64,000 nucleotides of DNA from Candidatus Nealsonbacteria bacterium (lineage in GTDB: Bacteria; Patescibacteriota; Minisyncoccia; Minisyncoccales; JAUWAW01), in the NCBI GenBank assembly GCA_030601865.1, contig JAUWAW010000001.1:46433-110432 (forward strand). Direction: 5' to 3'. Both the position numbers and the translations under genes were made by a program. The first letter of the stretch is position 1. Every line of letters begins with the position of its first letter. Shown piece by piece: positions 4,175 to 56,155 of this stretch. The notes under the pieces are model-generated. The model worked only from the letters and a program-made list of their open reading frames with translations, did no database searches and was not told the origin of the DNA.

Positions 4175-5914
4175 ATGTCAAACAAAAAAATAGAAAAAAT
4201 TCGGCATTCGCTGGCGCATATTATGGCTGCAACGGTTAAGGAGCTTTATCCAAGAGTCAAATTCGGTATTGGCCCGGCCATTGAAAATGGTTTTTATTAT
4301 GATTTTGATTTAACCTCTCCTCTGTTCCCTGAAAATCTGCCAAAAATTGAAAAGAAAATACGGGAATTGATTAGAAAAGATTTAAAGTTTGAGAAAGAAA
4401 GTATTTCAAGAACAGAAGCCAAAAAAATATTTAAAAACCAACCATATAAATTCGAATTAATTAAAGAACTAAAAGGGCTACAAGTTTCATGTTTCAAGTT
4501 TCATGATTTCGTTGACTTGTGCAAGGGGCCTCATATTAAATCAACCAAAGAAATAAATCCCAAGGCGTTCAAATTAACTAAAATCGCCGGGGCTTACTGG
4601 CGGGGTGATGAGAAAAACCCCATGCTCACCCGCATTTATGGCGTGGCCTTTGAAACAGAAAAAGAATTAAAAGATTATTTAAAACAAGTTGAAGAAGCAG
4701 AACAAAGAGACCATCGTGTTTTGGGTGAAAAATTGGACTTATTTCATATTGATAAAGCCATCGGCCCAGGCCTTATCCTTTGGCATCCCAAAGGCGCACT
4801 CCTCAAAAAAATCATTGAGGATTATGTGCTTTCAGAATACCTAAAAGCCGGCTATCAACTGGTTAACACTCCCCATATTGCTAAAATTTCCATTTGGGAT
4901 ACCTCGGGCCACACCAAATTCTACAAAGACAGTATGTTCCCAGTCATGCAACTCAAGGAAATGGGCAAGGTAATCCCTTATCAGCTCAAACCAATGAATT
5001 GCCCTTTTCATATCTTGATTTATCAAAAAGAAATTAGAAGTTATCGCCAATTACCTATCCGATACACTGAATTAGGCACGGTTTATAGATACGAGAAATC
5101 AGGCACCTTGCACGGGCTGACGCGAGTGCGTGGTTTTACTCAAGATGATGCTCATATTTTCTGCACTCCTGAACAACTTGGTAAAGAGTTAGTGTCTGTT
5201 TTAAAACTAACTTTAAAAATATTTAAAACTTTTGGTTTTAAAGAATTTGAGATATGTCTTTCCACCCGGCCAAAAAAATATGTTGGCACTTTAAAAAGTT
5301 GGCAGAAAGCCACCAATGCTTTAAAATATGCCTTGGAAAAAGTAAAACTTGCCTATCAAATTGACCCTGGCGAGGGCGTTTTCTATGGACCCAAGATTGA
5401 CATTAAAATCAAAGATTCTTTGGGAAGGGCTTGGCAGTGTACCACCATCCAAGTTGATTTCAATTTACCTGAGGGATTTAATTTAAGCTATATTGATAAA
5501 AAAGGCAAAAAGAAACAGCCCATTATGATTCACCGAGCGCTTCTGGGTTCTTTGGAAAGATTTATTGGCGTTTTGATTGAGCATTATGCAGGCGCTTTCC
5601 CTTTGTGGCTGGCTCCAGAACAGACTTGGATTATTCCCGTAGGTACCCGTCACAAAAAATACGCCCGTGAAACATGCAAACAACTCTACGAGAACAGTTC
5701 TCGTAGTATTGTAAAAGACGCCAATGAAACCGTTTCCAAAAAAATAAGGGAAGGGGAAATCCAAAAAATTCCCTATCTCTTGGTTGTCGGCGACAAAGAA
5801 ATAAAAAGAAAATCAGTTAGGGTCCGCCAGCGAGGCAAGGGCGATATTGGAAAAATGAAACTGAATAAATTTATAGAAAAATGCCAGAATTGTCTTTGCA
5901 AACGCAAAAATTAA
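4175..5914 (+). CDS. thrS: Threonine--tRNA ligase (no N-terminal TGS domain)
   Basis: 579 aa; HSLAHIMA editing-domain motif, class II core (YRYEKSGTLHGLTRVRGFTQDDAHIF), C-terminal anticodon-binding domain. Confidence 0.93.
   Translation: MSNKKIEKIRHSLAHIMAATVKELYPRVKFGIGPAIENGFYYDFDLTSPLFPENLPKIEKKIRELIRKDLKFEKESISRTEAKKIFKNQPYKFELIKELKGLQVSCFKFHDFVDLCKGPHIKSTKEINPKAFKLTKIAGAYWRGDEKNPMLTRIYGVAFETEKELKDYLKQVEEAEQRDHRVLGEKLDLFHIDKAIGPGLILWHPKGALLKKIIEDYVLSEYLKAGYQLVNTPHIAKISIWDTSGHTKFYKDSMFPVMQLKEMGKVIPYQLKPMNCPFHILIYQKEIRSYRQLPIRYTELGTVYRYEKSGTLHGLTRVRGFTQDDAHIFCTPEQLGKELVSVLKLTLKIFKTFGFKEFEICLSTRPKKYVGTLKSWQKATNALKYALEKVKLAYQIDPGEGVFYGPKIDIKIKDSLGRAWQCTTIQVDFNLPEGFNLSYIDKKGKKKQPIMIHRALLGSLERFIGVLIEHYAGAFPLWLAPEQTWIIPVGTRHKKYARETCKQLYENSSRSIVKDANETVSKKIREGEIQKIPYLLVVGDKEIKRKSVRVRQRGKGDIGKMKLNKFIEKCQNCLCKRKN
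5687..5705. repeat. Family-4 palindrome TACGAGAACAGTTCTCGTA inside thrS
   Basis: Perfect 9+1+9 palindrome. The 25-nt string ctacgagaacagttctcgtagtatt is identical to the one in mnmA at 40876-40900. Confidence 0.85.
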
Positions 5915-7455
5915 TCTCCCGCTATCAAGAGTGGTATCAATCTAAACAACCTCAAGAAGGTGTGCCGACCATCCATGTTGATGAAGTGGCCTCTAAGGTG
6001 GCTGCTTTTTATGAGAGAATCAGAGAGGTAGTGGATTGGAAAGAAGAACATCTGATGAGAAGAGCGGCCATAAGCAGGATGGTCAAAAGAAGGTTGCTTT
6101 TGGGCGAAAACCACCAGGATATGGCTGAATCCTTAATAATGGAATTAATCAGAGGAGGACACTTTCCTAACGATAAAATTGAAGAAAACAAGATTGAAGA
6201 GGTGCAAAAAATAATTGATAAGTATAGATTTATTCTTAAAAAGAGTCCTAAACCGCCCAAGGAAAAATTAAAAATCCAACTTTACAACTGGATTTTGGGA
6301 ATTGCTGCTTGTGAGGTTGAAGAAGCCTTGTCACCTCCCCTGAGAGAAAGAGCCCTGATGAATTATATGACTAAATTGATGCAGGAAAGAATTAGAATCA
6401 GCCAAGGAATTCTTGTCATCGGAGGGATGACAGAAGAAGAAAAAAATATCCAAACATATATCGCAGTGCAGCGGGCTTTATTTAAATTAGACGCGCCCCT
6501 TATCAGTTATAATCTTTTTAAAAAAAGATACCCTAACTACTATAGTGAGAACATTTACTCTGTTTGGGAAAGTGTAGAAAATGACTTAAACCATCCTCTG
6601 GCTGACAAGTTCTATAGAATCTGCGAAAAATATGACACGGCTTATCTACTTTTAGGTGATGTTCTATCTAAAGACCCCATGGGAGTCCAAGAAAAAATCT
6701 CACAACCGGCGGTTTTAGAAAGCGCTATCAAAAATGCCTATAATCAACGACTCAGCACACTCAAATCTCGGCTCTCTCGAGCAGCTGTTTATGCCACTTT
6801 ATCTATATTTCTGACCAATATTGTCTCCCTTTTAGCAGTGGAGATTCCATTTACTTGTTATGTTACCGGCCATTTTAATTTTTGGGCCATTGGCGTAGAT
6901 ATCCTAGGCCCCACTTTTTTAATGGCCTTTTTAGTAGTAACCATTAGGCCTCCTAAAAAAGAAAATTTGACTCATGTAATAATGGAAACGATGAAAATTG
7001 CCTATCAAAAAGAGAGAAAAGACATTTATGAGATTAAAATTAGAAAAAAACGAGGAATTATTCTCAATTTTATTATCAGTCTTTTTTACTTTTTCAGTTT
7101 CTGTCTATCGGTTGGTTTAGTAATTTGGGGGCTTTATAAAGTGCATTTTCCCATACTTTCTTATCCTATTTTTGTTATCTTTATTTCCTTAATTGCCTTT
7201 GCTGGAGCTAAAATCAGAGAAAGAGCCAAAGAATTACATATTATAGAAAAGAAAGAAAGTATGCTCAATATCGTGCTTGATTTATTTTCTGTACCCATTG
7301 TCCATTTGGGAAAATGGTTGTCAATCCGCTGGAAAAAGTATAATGTTATCTCGGTTTTTTTCAGCGCCTTAATAGATATGCCCTTTTTGCTTTTTGTAGA
7401 ATTCTTAGAACAATGGAGATACTTTCTCAAAGAAAAGAAAGAAGAAATCCACTAA
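5881..7455 (+). CDS. Hypothetical protein, helical N-terminal half plus multi-pass membrane C-terminal half
   Basis: 524-aa ORF overlapping the thrS end by 34 nt; several hydrophobic helices after residue ~300; no family recognised. Confidence 0.6.
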   Translation: MPELSLQTQKLISRYQEWYQSKQPQEGVPTIHVDEVASKVAAFYERIREVVDWKEEHLMRRAAISRMVKRRLLLGENHQDMAESLIMELIRGGHFPNDKIEENKIEEVQKIIDKYRFILKKSPKPPKEKLKIQLYNWILGIAACEVEEALSPPLRERALMNYMTKLMQERIRISQGILVIGGMTEEEKNIQTYIAVQRALFKLDAPLISYNLFKKRYPNYYSENIYSVWESVENDLNHPLADKFYRICEKYDTAYLLLGDVLSKDPMGVQEKISQPAVLESAIKNAYNQRLSTLKSRLSRAAVYATLSIFLTNIVSLLAVEIPFTCYVTGHFNFWAIGVDILGPTFLMAFLVVTIRPPKKENLTHVIMETMKIAYQKERKDIYEIKIRKKRGIILNFIISLFYFFSFCLSVGLVIWGLYKVHFPILSYPIFVIFISLIAFAGAKIRERAKELHIIEKKESMLNIVLDLFSVPIVHLGKWLSIRWKKYNVISVFFSALIDMPFLLFVEFLEQWRYFLKEKKEEIH

Positions 7456-7460
7456 CCTAA

Positions 7461-9419
7461 ATGAAATATCATATTGTTACTTACGGCTGTCAAATGAATA
7501 AAAGCGACAGTGAGAGGATTGCTACACTATTAGAGAATAAAGGATATCAGCCCGCGAAAGATATTTCTCGGGCTGATTTGGTAGTAATTAATATGTGTTC
7601 TGTTCGCCAAAAACCGGTAGACAAAGCCAAAAACCAGATTGCTCGTCTCCGCAATAAAAAAATTATTTTAATAGGTTGTATTTTAGATGCTGACAAAAAA
7701 GAATTTGCAAAAATGGGAGTTAAAATCTGGAGAGGTCTGACCTCTGCAAAACTTGCAGAGGTCAGACCTCTAACTGGTTTTGTGCCCATTATGAGAGGGT
7801 GTAATAATTTTTGTTCATACTGTGTTGTGCCTTACACTCGAGGGCCGGAAAAATATCGCAGTCAAAAAGAAATTATTGGCGAAGTTAAACATCTTCTTAA
7901 AAAAGGAATTAAAGAAATTACTTTGCTGGGTCAAAATGTCGATAGTTATAAATATAAACCACCACGGGATCCTTCGGCTTCGCCTCAGGATGATAACTCC
8001 GTTGTCAATTTTGTAAAATTACTTCAGAAAATTACTGTCTTGCCCGGCGATTTTAAGATTAAATTTATTACCAATCATCCCAAAGATTTTTCTGATGAAC
8101 TAATCGATGAGATTGCTCGGAATGACAAAATAATCAAATATGTTCACTTGCCAGTGCAGTCAGGTGATAATAAAATCTTAAAAAAGATGAACCGCAATTA
8201 TACTGGTGAGCAGTATTTGGCTTTGATTAAAAAAATTAAAAAGAAAATACCTAATGTTGACCTAACAACTGATATTATTGTTGGCTTTCCCGGTGAAACC
8301 GAAAAACAATTCCAAAAGACAGTTAACTTGTTTAAAAAGATTAAATTTGCTACCGCCTACATTGCCAAATACAGCCCCCGCCCCGGCACCGTTGCCTATA
8401 AACTAAAAGACAACGTCCCCCTCGCAGAAAAAAAGCGCCGAGAACAAACCCTGAGAAAATTAATACCTCCTACCCGTCATTCTGAGGCGAAGCCGAAGAA
8501 TCTCAACCAACGAGATCCTTCGGCTCGCTATCACTCGCCTCAGGATGACAATAACAAACTTATTGTTATTTTGGGGCCGACGGCTGTAGGGAAAACAGAG
8601 TTTTCAATAAAGCTGGCCAAAAAATTTAACGGCCAGGTGATTTCGGCTGACTCCCGTCAGGTCTATAAAGGAATGAACATCGGAACAGGTAAAATAAGCA
8701 AAAAAGAAAGGCAAGGTATCCCCCACTATCTTTTAGATATTGCCTCCCCCAGAAGAAGGTTTTCGGTTGCCCAATATCAAAAAAAGGCGATTGAAGTCAT
8801 AAACAAAATTTTAAAAAAGAAAAAAATCCCGTTTTTAGTAGGCGGAAGTCCTTTTTATATTTACTCTATTGTTGAGGGTTGGGTTTTTCCCAAAATGAAA
8901 GCCGACTTAAAACTGAGAAAAGAATTGGAAAAAAAATCAATTGAAGAACTTTTCAACATATTAAAAAAACTCTCTCCGCAGAGAGCCAAAACAATTGAAA
9001 AGAAAAACAAAAGACGGCTTATCAGGGCAATTGAGATTGCCAAGGCTTTAGGCAAAGTTTTGCCTCTGAAAAAAAATCCCCAATTTGATTGTTTGTTAAT
9101 AGGGATTAAACTAACAAAAGAAAAATTACAAAAAAAAGTTTCCCAAAGAGTTGATAAAATGATTGAATTAGGTCTTGAAAAAGAAGTAAAAAAATTATCT
9201 GAAAAATACGGCTTCAATTCTGTGTTGGGAGAAAGTATTGGCTACCAAGAATGGGAAAAAAGCGGCAGCCGGGCTGCCGCTGAAATAGCAGAGGAAATAA
9301 AATTTAATACTTATCATCTTGCCAAGCGGCAAATGACCTGGTTCAAAAAAGATAAAAGAATCCTTTGGGTTGAGAATTATAAACAAGCGGAAAATTTGAT
9401 CAAAAATTTCTTGGTATAA
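7461..9419 (+). CDS. miaB-miaA: Fusion protein: MiaB-like methylthiotransferase (UPF0004 + radical SAM, no TRAM domain) fused to tRNA dimethylallyltransferase MiaA
   Basis: N-terminus MKYHIVTYGCQMNKSDSE and CNNFCSYCVVPYTRG (MiaB). From about residue 375, LIVILGPTAVGKTEFSIKLAKKFNGQVISADSRQVYKGMNIGTGK (MiaA P-loop). One uninterrupted 652-aa ORF. Confidence 0.85.
   Translation: MKYHIVTYGCQMNKSDSERIATLLENKGYQPAKDISRADLVVINMCSVRQKPVDKAKNQIARLRNKKIILIGCILDADKKEFAKMGVKIWRGLTSAKLAEVRPLTGFVPIMRGCNNFCSYCVVPYTRGPEKYRSQKEIIGEVKHLLKKGIKEITLLGQNVDSYKYKPPRDPSASPQDDNSVVNFVKLLQKITVLPGDFKIKFITNHPKDFSDELIDEIARNDKIIKYVHLPVQSGDNKILKKMNRNYTGEQYLALIKKIKKKIPNVDLTTDIIVGFPGETEKQFQKTVNLFKKIKFATAYIAKYSPRPGTVAYKLKDNVPLAEKKRREQTLRKLIPPTRHSEAKPKNLNQRDPSARYHSPQDDNNKLIVILGPTAVGKTEFSIKLAKKFNGQVISADSRQVYKGMNIGTGKISKKERQGIPHYLLDIASPRRRFSVAQYQKKAIEVINKILKKKKIPFLVGGSPFYIYSIVEGWVFPKMKADLKLRKELEKKSIEELFNILKKLSPQRAKTIEKKNKRRLIRAIEIAKALGKVLPLKKNPQFDCLLIGIKLTKEKLQKKVSQRVDKMIELGLEKEVKKLSEKYGFNSVLGESIGYQEWEKSGSRAAAEIAEEIKFNTYHLAKRQMTWFKKDKRILWVENYKQAENLIKNFLV
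7732..7770. repeat. Perfect 18-bp-arm palindrome in frame inside the miaB part
   Basis: gaggtctgacctctgcaa-aac-ttgcagaggtcagacctc; encodes RGLTSAKLAEVRPL. The antisense frame reads the near-identical RGLTSASFAEVRPL. Confidence 0.9.
7966..7994. repeat. Family-1 element copy in frame inside the miaB radical-SAM part
   Basis: gggatccttcggcttcgcctcaggatgat; encodes RDPSASPQDD. Confidence 0.85.
8476..8549. repeat. Inverted pair of family-1 elements forming the MiaB-MiaA linker
   Basis: gtcattctgaggcgaagccgaagaatctc ... gagatccttcggctcgctatcactcgcctcaggatgac; encodes RHSEAKPKNLNQRDPSARYHSPQDD. Confidence 0.85.
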
Positions 9420-12365: not shown

Positions 12366-13250
12366 TTAGTCGTGCCAGCCGTATTCGTCGGCTGACTCGT
12401 ATTCGTCGGCTGACTCTTGGTTTTCTTTCTCGACCTTTTTGATGAACAGCTTCTGGTCCTGTTCATAATCTAAGCCATTCTTGAGAGCTATTTCAGCCTT
12501 CTGAAGCTCCCGGCCCAAATACATAGCATGTTCCTTGGTCTGTTGGAAATCACCGATTAAGTCAAGATTGACTATTGTTTTACAAATACGTTCTGCTGAA
12601 TCTCCTGTTATTTTACATTTTAATTTATTGTCTTGGAAATGTTCAACGATTATCTTATTCCTTTCTTTATTAATTAAAACAACAAAGAATCCTTTTGGGT
12701 CAGGTATCCAGTCAGGGCAGGAATGAGCTTCTATTTCTGCTACTTTCTCAATTTTCAAAACCTTTGGAGAAAACTCGCTGGGTTTGGTTTGCAAAAGCTT
12801 ATCAATCACTTCTTCAATTTTCTTACCGTCCCTCTCACCTACCATATTGACAGGTGAAATCTGTTTTCTGAATTGTTCAATCAGTTCTTTATCAATACCT
12901 TTTAGATAGGACATATTGCCTTTGGCTCCGATAATCATTTTATCATTGTCTATACCGCTTTTTACAAGACATTCTATTGCTTGAGAGACAAAATGACCTT
13001 TGGAAATTTTCCCGCAAAGAATCAAATACCTGATATTGGGATTGGAAACTATGTTTTGGATTATTTTTTCTATGCCGATGTTCTCTGTAACACATTTACC
13101 CCAGATTGCTACTTTCTGAGGACTGATTTTTATTTCATCAATACTAGCATTAGTGCAAACAGCCACTGGCGAAATTTTATTGCCCACCTCGTATCTTCCC
13201 TGAACTGGCGGCCAATTTTGCAGCTTGCTTTCCATATTGATAAGTCGCAC
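12366..13250 (-). CDS. MtrA-like (tetrahydromethanopterin S-methyltransferase subunit A-like, corrinoid-type) domain fused to a DUF4346-like C-terminal domain
   Basis: NWPPVQGRYEVGN..SPVAVCT...TENIGIEKIIQNIVSNPNIRYLILCGKISKGHFVSQA...IIGAKG aligns closely with archaeal MtrA as I recall it, including the GH histidine. C-terminal DPKGFFVV...HAMYLGRELQKAE resembles DUF4346. Likely start is the ATG at 13235 (MESKLQNW). Confidence 0.8.
   Translation of the reverse strand: MRLINMESKLQNWPPVQGRYEVGNKISPVAVCTNASIDEIKISPQKVAIWGKCVTENIGIEKIIQNIVSNPNIRYLILCGKISKGHFVSQAIECLVKSGIDNDKMIIGAKGNMSYLKGIDKELIEQFRKQISPVNMVGERDGKKIEEVIDKLLQTKPSEFSPKVLKIEKVAEIEAHSCPDWIPDPKGFFVVLINKERNKIIVEHFQDNKLKCKITGDSAERICKTIVNLDLIGDFQQTKEHAMYLGRELQKAEIALKNGLDYEQDQKLFIKKVEKENQESADEYESADEYGWHD
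12381..12416. repeat. Perfect 18-bp tandem duplication at the 3' end of the MtrA-like gene
   Basis: gtattcgtcggctgactc x2, encoding ESADEY-ESADEY. Confidence 0.9.
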
Positions 13251-13287
13251 TAACAGTGCGACGGGTCTGTCGCACTGTTAGTGCGAC
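13244..13287. repeat. Double hairpin / 19-bp-arm palindrome at the dcd stop / MtrA-like start junction
   Basis: gtcgcactaacagtgcgac-gggtct-gtcgcactgttagtgcgac; each arm is itself an 8-bp hairpin; supplies the last ~13 codons of dcd. Confidence 0.85.
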
Positions 13288-13864
13288 AATTAGGCCTAAA
13301 TTCTTGGTTTATTTTGCTGGCTTGAGGAGATTCCTGTTTATCGTATTTCTGAGCTTTTTTTTCTGAATAGGAAACCTCGCAAGGACCAGAAAGCGTCTCA
13401 AAAGTCAAGGCGCAAACCCGCATCCCGGCATATAAAATAATGGGCATAATTCCCAAATTCCCCAATTCCATCACTGCTTTTCCCTGCCAACCAGGGTCAA
13501 AGCGAGCGGCGGTTGAATGAACTATCATTCCCAACCTACCCAAAGAACTTCTACCATCCAGTCTTGCCATTATATCATTGGGTAAAATTATTTCTTCTTT
13601 TGTTATAGCAATCACAAATTCTTTTGATTGCAAGATAAAAGGAGCTCCATCTTCTATTTTTACTTCCTCCATTAATTTTTCGAAATTGATATCTCTTTTA
13701 AGGTCTAAATAGGGATATTGAGAGGGCTTAAAAGTTTTAAAAATATTGCCTAAATGTAAATCTAAGGAACAAGGTCCTAATTGCTTTTCAAAATCGGGCT
13801 CAGGCTTGATTGTGATTTTTCCTTCCCTAATATATTTTTTTATGTCTTTGTCTGAGAGAATCAT
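13250..13864 (-). CDS. dcd: dCTP deaminase
   Basis: 204 aa; MILSDKDIKKYI, GPCSLDLHLGN, RLDGRSSLGRLG and FDPGWQG motifs of the dUTPase-fold Dcd family. The C-terminal tail RPNCRTNSATDPSHC is encoded by the palindrome. Confidence 0.9.
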   Translation of the reverse strand: MILSDKDIKKYIREGKITIKPEPDFEKQLGPCSLDLHLGNIFKTFKPSQYPYLDLKRDINFEKLMEEVKIEDGAPFILQSKEFVIAITKEEIILPNDIMARLDGRSSLGRLGMIVHSTAARFDPGWQGKAVMELGNLGIMPIILYAGMRVCALTFETLSGPCEVSYSEKKAQKYDKQESPQASKINQEFRPNCRTNSATDPSHC

Positions 13865-40488: not shown

Positions 40489-41640
40489 TTAACATATAAT
40501 TATTCCGCCGCCTAAAAGTTTTTCTCCTTTATAGAAAACCACTGATTGACCCGGGGTGACGGCGCGTTGGGGCTTGGCAAAAATTACTTTACAGCGCCTG
40601 CCCGCTATTTTTTTTATTGCTTCAACTTCAATTACTGGCGAACGATACCTTATTTTCGCTTTTATCCCAACTATTGGAGTTGAACTCCAATAGTTTGAAA
40701 TCCAGTTAACATCTTTGACAATCAATTCTTTTTTTTCCAAATGTTTTTCGTTCTTGGTGACAATTAAAGCATTATTTTTGACATCCTTGTCTAAAACATA
40801 GTATGGACCTCCGGCAAGCCCTATCCCCTTTCGCTGACCAATAGTATAAAACCACAACCCCTGATGCTCGCCAATACTACGAGAACAGTTCTCGTAGTAT
40901 TCTAAGATGGGGCCAGGATTTGTTTTAAGATGTTTTCTCAAAAATTCCTCTGTTGTTTTTTTAATAAAGCAAACTTCTTGAGATTCTCTGGCTTCAAGTA
41001 CCGGCAAGTCAAACTCCTTGGCCATCTGTCTTACTTGTCTTTTGGTGTAATCCCCAATGGGAAACAAAATGTGTTTTAATTGTTTCTGGCCCAACTGCCA
41101 TAAAAAATATGATTGATCTTTTTCTTTATCTTTTGCTCTTACCAATGTGTAATTTTGTATTTTTGTGTCAGAATTCTGCGACCTGCCCGTAATGCTTCGC
41201 ATAGCGATACAGGCGGGTCGCAGGATTTTGACACAGTTTAGATCTTTATTTGTATTTTCACATTTACGCGCATAGTGGCCAGTGGCAATAAAATCTGCGT
41301 CCAAGCCCAAGGCTTTTTTCAATAAAAGTCCAAATTTTATTTCTTTGTTGCAGACCACACAAGGGTTGGGGGTTCTGCCTCTTTTATATTCTTTCAAAAA
41401 ATAATTAATGATTTTTCTCTTAAACTCTTTTCTTAAATCCAAAACCAAAAATGGAATGCCTAATTTTTTAGCAATTTTTCTGACTCTTCTCTCACTTTCT
41501 CTGAAATGAGACGACTCATAAAGTTTCATAAAAACTCCTGTTACATTAAAATTAGCCCTTTTAAGAAGGGCTGCTGCTACCGAACTATCCACGCCACCGG
41601 ACATCGCCACTATTACCTTATTTTTTCTTTTTGCTTTCAT
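40489..41640 (-). CDS. mnmA: tRNA-specific 2-thiouridylase MnmA
   Basis: 383 aa; VAMSGGVDSSVAA, NPCVVCN, ATGHYAR, KDQSYFLW, CFI; carries two palindromic elements in frame. Confidence 0.92.
   Translation of the reverse strand: MKAKRKNKVIVAMSGGVDSSVAAALLKRANFNVTGVFMKLYESSHFRESERRVRKIAKKLGIPFLVLDLRKEFKRKIINYFLKEYKRGRTPNPCVVCNKEIKFGLLLKKALGLDADFIATGHYARKCENTNKDLNCVKILRPACIAMRSITGRSQNSDTKIQNYTLVRAKDKEKDQSYFLWQLGQKQLKHILFPIGDYTKRQVRQMAKEFDLPVLEARESQEVCFIKKTTEEFLRKHLKTNPGPILEYYENCSRSIGEHQGLWFYTIGQRKGIGLAGGPYYVLDKDVKNNALIVTKNEKHLEKKELIVKDVNWISNYWSSTPIVGIKAKIRYRSPVIEVEAIKKIAGRRCKVIFAKPQRAVTPGQSVVFYKGEKLLGGGIIIC
40874..40900. repeat. Family-4 palindrome inside mnmA
   Basis: atactacgagaac-a-gttctcgtagtat; encodes YYENCSRSI (thrS copy encodes YENSSRSI). 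Confidence 0.85.
41164..41235. repeat. Family-2 element (TGTGTCAAAATCCTGCGA/TCGCAGGATTTTGACACA), expanded copy in frame inside mnmA
   Basis: tgtgtcagaattctgcgac-[34-nt insert]-gtcgcaggattttgacaca; 72 bp = 24 codons (CVKILRPACIAMRSITGRSQNSDT). Confidence 0.85.
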
Positions 41641-51609: not shown

Positions 51610-51645
51610 TGTGTCAAAATCCTGCGATCGCAGGATTTTGACACA
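51610..51645. repeat. Family-2 element, perfect 36-bp palindrome, intergenic
   Basis: tgtgtcaaaatcctgcga|tcgcaggattttgacaca; contains GCGATCGC; identical to 56120-56155. Confidence 0.95.
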
Positions 51646-56119: not shown

Positions 56120-56155
56120 TGTGTCAAAATCCTGCGATCGCAGGATTTTGACACA
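56120..56155. repeat. Family-2 element, perfect 36-bp palindrome between dnaB and recR
   Basis: Identical to 51610-51645. Confidence 0.95.

Follow-up and report, generated by a model that had tools for sequence, protein, structure and literature searches.

The MiaB-MiaA fusion gene of a Candidatus Nealsonbacteria bacterium contains a hairpin-forming inverted repeat which is likely to be a doublet of a short palindromic unit. The unit resembles the repetitive extragenic palindromes (REPs) and their paired form, the REPINs (REP doublets forming hairpins), and belongs to a family found widely in the Candidate Phyla Radiation (CPR). The stretch of DNA analysed, referred to here as the window, comprises 64,000 nucleotides of GenBank assembly GCA_030601865.1 (contig JAUWAW010000001.1, positions 46,433 to 110,432 of the forward strand), and positions are those of the window unless a locus is named. 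We regard the element as a known phenomenon in a new group of bacteria, with one unexplained feature, the replacement of a native protein linker.

The 43 nucleotides at 7730-7772 read gagaggtctgacctctgcaaaacttgcagaggtcagacctcta. The first-pass annotation of the window had reported a 39-bp perfect palindrome at 7732-7770, and the letters it quoted agree with ours; the palindrome is real but extends one base further on each side, and its centre is not self-complementary. The repeat finder returned two arms of 19 nt (7731-7749 and 7753-7771) with 100% complementarity, separated by the 3-nt loop AAC. The element at 7731-7771 is thus a 41-nt hairpin-type inverted repeat rather than a strict 39-bp palindrome. 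Its arm matches were equalled in none of 100 dinucleotide shuffles of the window, and the predicted folding energy was -48.6 kcal/mol over 101 nt for RNA (z = -7.4) and -22.9 kcal/mol for DNA (z = -9.8). No Rfam match reached the gathering score, and relaxed E-values gave chance hairpin matches only; a known RNA family was rejected.

Each arm is itself palindromic (AGAGGTC-W-GACCTCT), as the annotation had remarked, and this proved the key clue to the repeat unit. Using the 18-mer arm as query, a collection holding one genome per species (596 Gb) was scanned, and a consensus was built from the contexts of the matching loci. The true unit is a 21-bp palindrome, TGCAGAGGTC-W-GACCTCTGCA, in which a single A or T separates two 10-nt arms; AAACT and AGTTT often border it on the outside, giving the extended consensus AAACT-TGCAGAGGTCWGACCTCTGCA-AGTTT. 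The real unit is therefore the arm and not the 39-bp whole. Two copies lie in the window, both on the plus strand. Unit 1 (TGgAGAGGTCTGACCTCTGCA, 7728..7748) has a T centre, matches the consensus at 20 of 21 positions and encodes W90-RGLTSA; unit 2 (TGCAGAGGTCAGACCTCTaac, 7754..7774) has an A centre, matches at 18 of 21 and encodes (L)AEVRPLT. The last 3 nt of unit 2 depart from the consensus at the point where the conserved native codons ACT GGT TTT start. Between the units lies the 5-nt spacer AAACT (7749..7753), which recurs as its reverse complement AGTTT in the doublet of locus L039, and the same bases form the outer unit flank in loci L007 and L026. The long perfect hairpin arises because two palindromic units sit back to back with complementary centre letters. 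With its 21 bp the unit falls within the 20-40 bp expected of the short imperfect palindromes called REPs, and the T-centred and A-centred units of the window, with their 5-nt spacer and 19-bp perfect stem, have the layout of a REPIN.

The annotation had quoted the two peptides correctly: RGLTSAKLAEVRPL on the sense strand and RGLTSASFAEVRPL on the antisense strand, the latter from the minus-strand open reading frame (ORF) 7547-7789. It had taken their near-identity as a sign of selection for survival inside genes. This argument does not hold, since a palindrome reads identically on both strands and the mirrored antisense frame must repeat the peptide, outside the loop, whatever the sequence; ORF 7547-7789 happens to use that mirrored frame (7771 downward versus 7731 upward). 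Tolerance of reading frames gives no support for selection either. Five of the six frames of the unit are open, the T-centred unit being closed in one (GTC TGA), which is close to the estimate of about 4.3 open frames for a random 21-mer ((61/64)^7 per frame). The frames used in genes give RG(L/Q)TSA, AEVRP(L/P) or QRSDLC.

The annotation had called for a search of the genome for further copies. Other CPR genomes do hold such copies, and many lie inside genes, where they encode the same peptides. The 18-mer arm was found at 24 loci, about 19 of which were CPR metagenome-assembled genomes (MAGs) or unclassified 'bacterium' MAGs carrying the full unit or pair, although CPR make up a small fraction of the species-representative database. 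The matched genomes include Paceibacterota Chersky_89 (four loci) and Kaiserbacteria MFD04540.bin.2.11 (seven loci), with at least 9 and at least 11 units respectively, as well as four Saccharibacteria MAGs, Parcubacteria RAAC4_OD1_1 and others. A scan of metagenomes with the 21-mer returned 16 loci representing a few distinct sites, among them L039, where two perfect units with the same 5-nt spacer lie inside a RecO-like ORF. The window's own locus was not among the matches of either scan. Units occur singly or in pairs with non-conserved spacers of 5-18 nt, and pairs in the same orientation (A,A and T,T) were also seen outside the window. A phage vector was considered and dropped, as none of the viral contigs contained a match to the unit. 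At the start of one Patescibacteria contig (L006, 384-613), four units in 230 nt are interleaved with the partial copies TGCAGAGTTC and TGCAGAGGTC; this cluster is a local array and not a set of dispersed copies.

About 31 of 53 distinct units fall in open frames of at least 150 codons, a few of these merely upstream of start codons. Copies encode KLAEVRPLQEQEKSRGLTSAS in GatB (L007), KLAEVRPLQEDSRGLTSAS in UvrC (L026) and, in the same order as in the window, RRGLTSAKERAEVRPL in MiaA (L022); further intragenic units were found in MurE (L010), a second Mur ligase (L005), RumA-like methyltransferases (L014, L017 and L023) and the C-terminus of IleRS (L013). The MiaA doublet is a clean insertion of 18 aa relative to three orthologues. 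For GatB, distant orthologues had suggested a second case of replaced native sequence, which closer ones refuted: relative to the closest orthologues (72% identity and below) the doublet adds 14 aa. Replacement is thus not claimed as a general rule. In Saccharibacteria, matches with conserved flanks were considered as non-coding RNA and rejected, being orthologous RumA-like genes. The single units there (L014 2992-3012, L017, L023, and L005 6306-6326) overlay conserved positions with little or no change in length, giving IAEVRPPQ just ahead of the YLSCNP motif in the RumA-like proteins and ILAEVRPLS in the Mur ligase, and the Pro that the unit encodes falls where the respective family usually has one.

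In related genomes the unit is also linked to a transposase gene. Locus L004 of Chersky_89 contains an ORF of 231 aa (1850-2545) of the Y1_Tnp (IS200-like) family, with exact units at 1726-1746, 1827-1847 and 2554-2574, that is, 100 nt upstream of the gene, abutting its ATG and 8 nt past its stop. Locus L011 of Kaiserbacteria contains an ORF of 227 aa (1294-1977; Pfam Y1_Tnp, 39 bits) with unit doublets on both sides. Both proteins score above the Pfam gathering cut-off for Y1_Tnp, and the top NCBIfam family for L011 is the REP-associated tyrosine transposase (RAYT; E 8e-10). The L011 gene takes its stop codon from the middle of the unit downstream of it (…GCA GAG GTC TGA; 1964-1977), and at L044 (2171-2193) a RAYT-like gene likewise ends in the central TGA of its downstream unit (…GCG AAG GTC TGA). 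In L004 and L044 the upstream unit abuts the ATG and leaves no space for a ribosome-binding site. To judge from these sequences, the arrangement is that of a classical RAYT gene embedded in its REPs.

About 120 CPR proteins of 225-250 aa belong to this transposase family, and JGI labels some of them as REP-associated tyrosine transposase. Three further members were fetched and flanking palindromes were found in all three: compensated variants of the unit in Adlerbacteria (TGCGAAGGTC-W-GACCTTCGCA, one unit abutting the ATG and one containing the stop) and Lloydbacteria (TGTCGAGGTC-S-GACCTCGACA), and an unrelated palindrome in Campbellbacteria (ATATCAAGGG-TAG-CCCTTGATAT). Whereas L004 and L011 carry the exact unit, compensated variants occur at L044-46 and L049-50; their stem changes compensate across the arms and retain the core GGTC-N-GACC. 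Residues N88, H89, H91 and Y149, corresponding to the HUH motif (N-H-x-H) and the tyrosine, are invariant in the four proteins aligned. Two transposase-like genes within one genome are 29% identical, too divergent to be copies of an insertion sequence (IS).

The host gene in the window (7461..9419, plus strand) encodes a protein of 652 aa with UPF0004 (aa 2-85), Radical_SAM (aa 108-290) and IPPT, a complete MiaA (aa 400-631). The annotation's label of miaB was correct as far as it went, but this MiaB lacks TRAM and is fused to MiaA. Absence of TRAM is common to most CPR homologues. The palindrome covers residues 91-104 and was correctly placed between the UPF0004 and radical-SAM domains. No record of the exact protein was found, and its closest homologues among 5.8 billion proteins were MiaB proteins of Patescibacteria/CPR of about 300-360 aa with only 66-71% identity. 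As to gene organisation, the same fusion with a short, plain linker occurs in one homologue (P0007, locus L003); in GCA_004196255.1 (locus L001), miaB and miaA are not fused, and a 154-aa ORF lies between the two genes.

Alignment with these homologues revealed that the hairpin sequence is not shared by the MiaB orthologues aligned, a sharing which the annotation had named, together with a lack of other copies, as evidence against its reading. The closest relatives read GV(K/E)I-KQFQEIEKIKPVS-ELVPIM or GVKF-KKFNFKKIKPET-GFVPIM, and the window protein reads GVKI-WRGLTSAKLAEVRPLT-GFVPIM. Codon alignment with two loci, one of which (L001) is syntenic with the window (dnaE, thrS, miaB ... miaA ... 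gatB), found the doublet flanked by colinear native codons between the conserved GVKI and GFVPIM. The segment in the window exceeds the native linker of 12-13 aa by only 3 codons, and the Pro of the encoded VRP aligns exactly with the conserved (I)KP of the orthologues. A simple insertion of 39 bp, as the annotation had supposed, does not agree with an orthologue linker that is only 3 aa shorter. These alignments indicate that the doublet stands in place of native linker codons and is not a clean insertion.

AlphaFold modelled the MiaB part with a mean pLDDT of 87.8 and predicted a short helix (aa 95-99) and a loop for the segment, which joins the two domains, with a block pLDDT of about 80. 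The cysteines of both Fe-S motifs are intact. Since the model is confident and all cluster cysteines are present, the MiaB of the window is probably functional and the element a tolerated passenger.

Taken as a REP/REPIN-like doublet, the element may have arisen as follows. By analogy with the REP-RAYT systems of E. coli and Pseudomonas, a RAYT-type transposase would recognise the hairpin that the unit forms in single-stranded DNA, cut and join beside it and, as the biology of REP-RAYT and IS200/IS605 suggests, spread units around the chromosome. One doublet would have landed in the MiaB surface linker between the N-terminal methylthiotransferase and radical-SAM domains. Most of the native linker would have been lost, either during insertion or afterwards, for which hairpin-stimulated deletion is plausible. 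The retained allele would then read the element in two stop-free frames (WRGLTSA-KL-AEVRPLT), with the REP-encoded Arg-Pro standing in for the conserved native Lys-Pro.

Several points weigh against this reading. No further copy of the unit was found in the 64-kb window, even at 4 mismatches, and neither was a RAYT homologue; a Y1/HUH gene flanked by the same repeats was found in related genomes only. The GTAG or CGTC tag of most REP families described is absent from the extended consensus and from the window copy, and the window copy lies inside miaB and is thus not extragenic. Although NF047646 was the best NCBIfam match of the transposase, it reached 38.8 bits against an equivalog cut-off of 80, and neither the transposase-like proteins nor their profile gave a significant PDB sequence match to solved RAYT structures, the best being ISDra2 TnpA at E ~1. 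As the best MiaB orthologue is only 66-71% identical, there is no empty site to compare. A net gain of 3 aa for an element of 44-47 nt means that simple transposition is insufficient and that an extra step of deletion or replacement must be assumed. As regards miniature inverted-repeat transposable elements, which combine terminal inverted repeats with a target-site duplication, the element does not belong among them, for no direct repeat surrounds the doublet in the window (AAAATC|...|AACTGG) or the other doublets.

A role in cis could have kept the hairpin in the miaB-miaA transcript or DNA, for instance if it attenuates or terminates transcription, is cut by an RNase or makes ribosomes pause and so sets the ratio of MiaB to MiaA; a REP origin would not conflict with such a role. 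The stem of 19 bp has high predicted stability, a simple scan labels the hairpin as terminator-like with the tail AACTGGTTTT, and REPs elsewhere have been reported to influence how transcripts end and how stable they are (PMC3733652). However, the T-run, which starts 6 nt past the stem, is made up of native codons that are conserved (GGT TTT GTG), the hairpin lies upstream of the catalytic domain, where termination would abolish both enzymes, orthologues have no hairpin at this position, and Rfam offers no match. We consider such a role improbable.

Still less probable is that the unit is a motif kept by the host, used as a signal for DNA uptake or bound at its symmetric halves by a conserved CPR protein, and that it accumulates in genes by mutation and drive. 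Like the DNA uptake sequences (DUS) of Neisseria and the uptake signal sequences (USS) of Pasteurellaceae, it is a short lineage-wide motif, genic as well as intergenic, and often found in inverted pairs. Identical 21-mers in several CPR lineages, single units that coincide with native residues and hardly alter the length, if at all (Saccharibacteria RumA-like, Mur ligase) and the compensated stem variants, which would also fit a dimeric DNA-binding protein, point the same way. Uptake signals, however, occur at about 1 per kb. The density of the CPR unit is one to two orders of magnitude lower: the 64-kb window holds 2 units, and an 8-kb locus elsewhere typically holds 1-5. In further contrast to uptake signals, the unit is physically linked to a transposase gene, with units tightly bracketing Y1 transposase genes, and it forms clean insertions of about doublet length, as in MiaA and GatB. 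The uptake signal was rejected on density and transposase linkage.

The least probable origin, considered after the orthologue alignment, is intra-strand template switching at replication without any mobile element, in which the right arm would be native (EVRPL versus EKIKPV) and the left arm its reverse-complement copy; it accounts for the net change of just 3 aa, the ungapped alignment of the right arm to native I/V-K/R-P codons and the 100% identity of the arms, but was dropped when the arm proved to be a conserved unit in many genomes, since both arms fit (20/21 and 18/21) a consensus found in other genomes, in unrelated genes and beside transposase genes, and local copying cannot explain two matches to a foreign consensus.

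We thus return to the REP/REPIN-like doublet and compare it with known systems. A REPIN consists of two REPs, each a short palindrome, with a variable spacer between them; such pairs usually measure about 100 bp, lie almost exclusively outside genes and owe their duplication to a single-copy RAYT (Bertels and colleagues, bioRxiv 10.1101/2021.07.10.451892). The REP, BIME (bacterial interspersed mosaic element) and REPIN systems with RAYTs of E. coli, Pseudomonas, Stenotrophomonas and Neisseria share with the CPR element palindromic units of about 21 bp, single or in close pairs with a variable spacer, the flanking of a single-copy Y1/HUH gene by units on both sides (seen in the CPR relatives), and the co-variation of unit sequence with transposase lineage. 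REP families are mostly GTAG- or CGTC-tagged (Di Nocera et al. 2013, PMC3733652), each tetranucleotide standing at one end of the palindrome and marking one of two large super-families, whereas the CPR element has neither tag. The doublet in the window is only 47 nt, as against about 100 nt for a typical REPIN, and about half of the CPR copies are intragenic, unlike the almost exclusively extragenic REPINs. No published description of REP-RAYT in CPR/Patescibacteria was found in the literature searched.

Intragenic single REPs and dimers encoding 20-30 aa are known from several species, many in repair genes, and Di Nocera et al. related them to the Rickettsia palindromic elements (RPEs) (PMC3733652). 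The CPR element resembles both in consisting of in-frame palindromic repeats within functional genes, often paired and then coding for about 20-30 aa, which fall in permissive loops or linkers and often in housekeeping, repair and translation genes. It differs in sequence family and host phylum and, in the window, in replacing a native linker with a gain of only 3 aa; RPE-1 is moreover longer (100-150 bp). The first-pass idea of a mobile palindromic element thus survives in part, as the sequence is a member of a repeat family that lies in frame within genes, but the unit and the argument offered for it were wrong. IS200/IS605 elements and their hairpin-ended miniature derivatives are similar in having a Y1 HUH transposase and subterminal hairpins as recognition elements. 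In contrast to these, the CPR transposase-like genes encode about 225-240 aa and are not identical multicopy genes, and the repeats far outnumber the gene.

A more speculative notion, which we hold to be improbable, is that CPR REP units are not only passengers: being open in several frames (RGLTSA, AEVRPL or QRSDLC), they could serve as portable linker cassettes, swapped for native inter-domain loops of essential genes, as in this MiaB, by RAYT-linked or hairpin-stimulated events that hardly alter the length and imitate the native K/R-Pro. The same events might contribute to making or lengthening fusion linkers, which is suggested by the further palindromic inserts at the MiaB-MiaA junction (described below). 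If this is true, protein linkers in reduced genomes would repeatedly evolve by REP turnover. REP-RAYT systems and in-frame palindromic inserts are known from Proteobacteria, Rickettsia and a few further groups, and the element itself extends them to the ultra-small, gene-dense CPR, with a large share in essential translation and repair genes. For annotation, it accounts for recurrent odd peptides (RGLTSA, AEVRPL, QRSDLC) and perfect hairpins in CPR genes. It also provides a natural set of tolerated loop insertions and replacements, and a compact REP-transposase pair open to biochemistry.

Other palindrome families were found in the window. A second, GC-rich family, ATCCTGAGGCGAAGCCGAAGGAT, has copies at 7968-7991 (minus), 8479-8502 (plus) and about 8514-8552 (minus), all in the miaB-miaA gene, and an intergenic copy at 142-198. 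One copy lies in the MiaB radical-SAM loop and encodes DPSASPQDD, and the linker between the MiaB and MiaA domains (RHSEAKPKNLNQRDPSARYHSPQDD) is largely composed of two inverted copies. The in-gene copies are insertions relative to orthologues; no exact match to this family was found in 50 fetched loci. A third family, TGTGTCAAAATCCTGCGA/TCGCAGGATTTTGACACA, forms an in-frame split doublet in MnmA (40489-41640, minus) at 41164-41181 and 41218-41235, where the match to the MnmA NCBIfam profile is broken by about 26 extra residues (CVKILRPACIAMRSITGRSQNSDT), and two identical perfect 36-bp intergenic palindromes at 51610-51645 and 56120-56155. A fourth, back-to-back palindromic pair, GTCGCACTAACAGTGCGAC-gggtct-GTCGCACTGTTAGTGCGAC, lies at 13244-13287, at the junction of ORFs 12366-13250 and 13250-13864 (both minus). 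In-frame palindromic inserts are thus a general habit of this genome, which fits the reading of the miaB element as a passenger. Next to the fusion gene, an ORF of 524 aa (5881-7455) with predicted membrane segments lies between thrS and miaB in the window and is absent from the syntenic locus L001.

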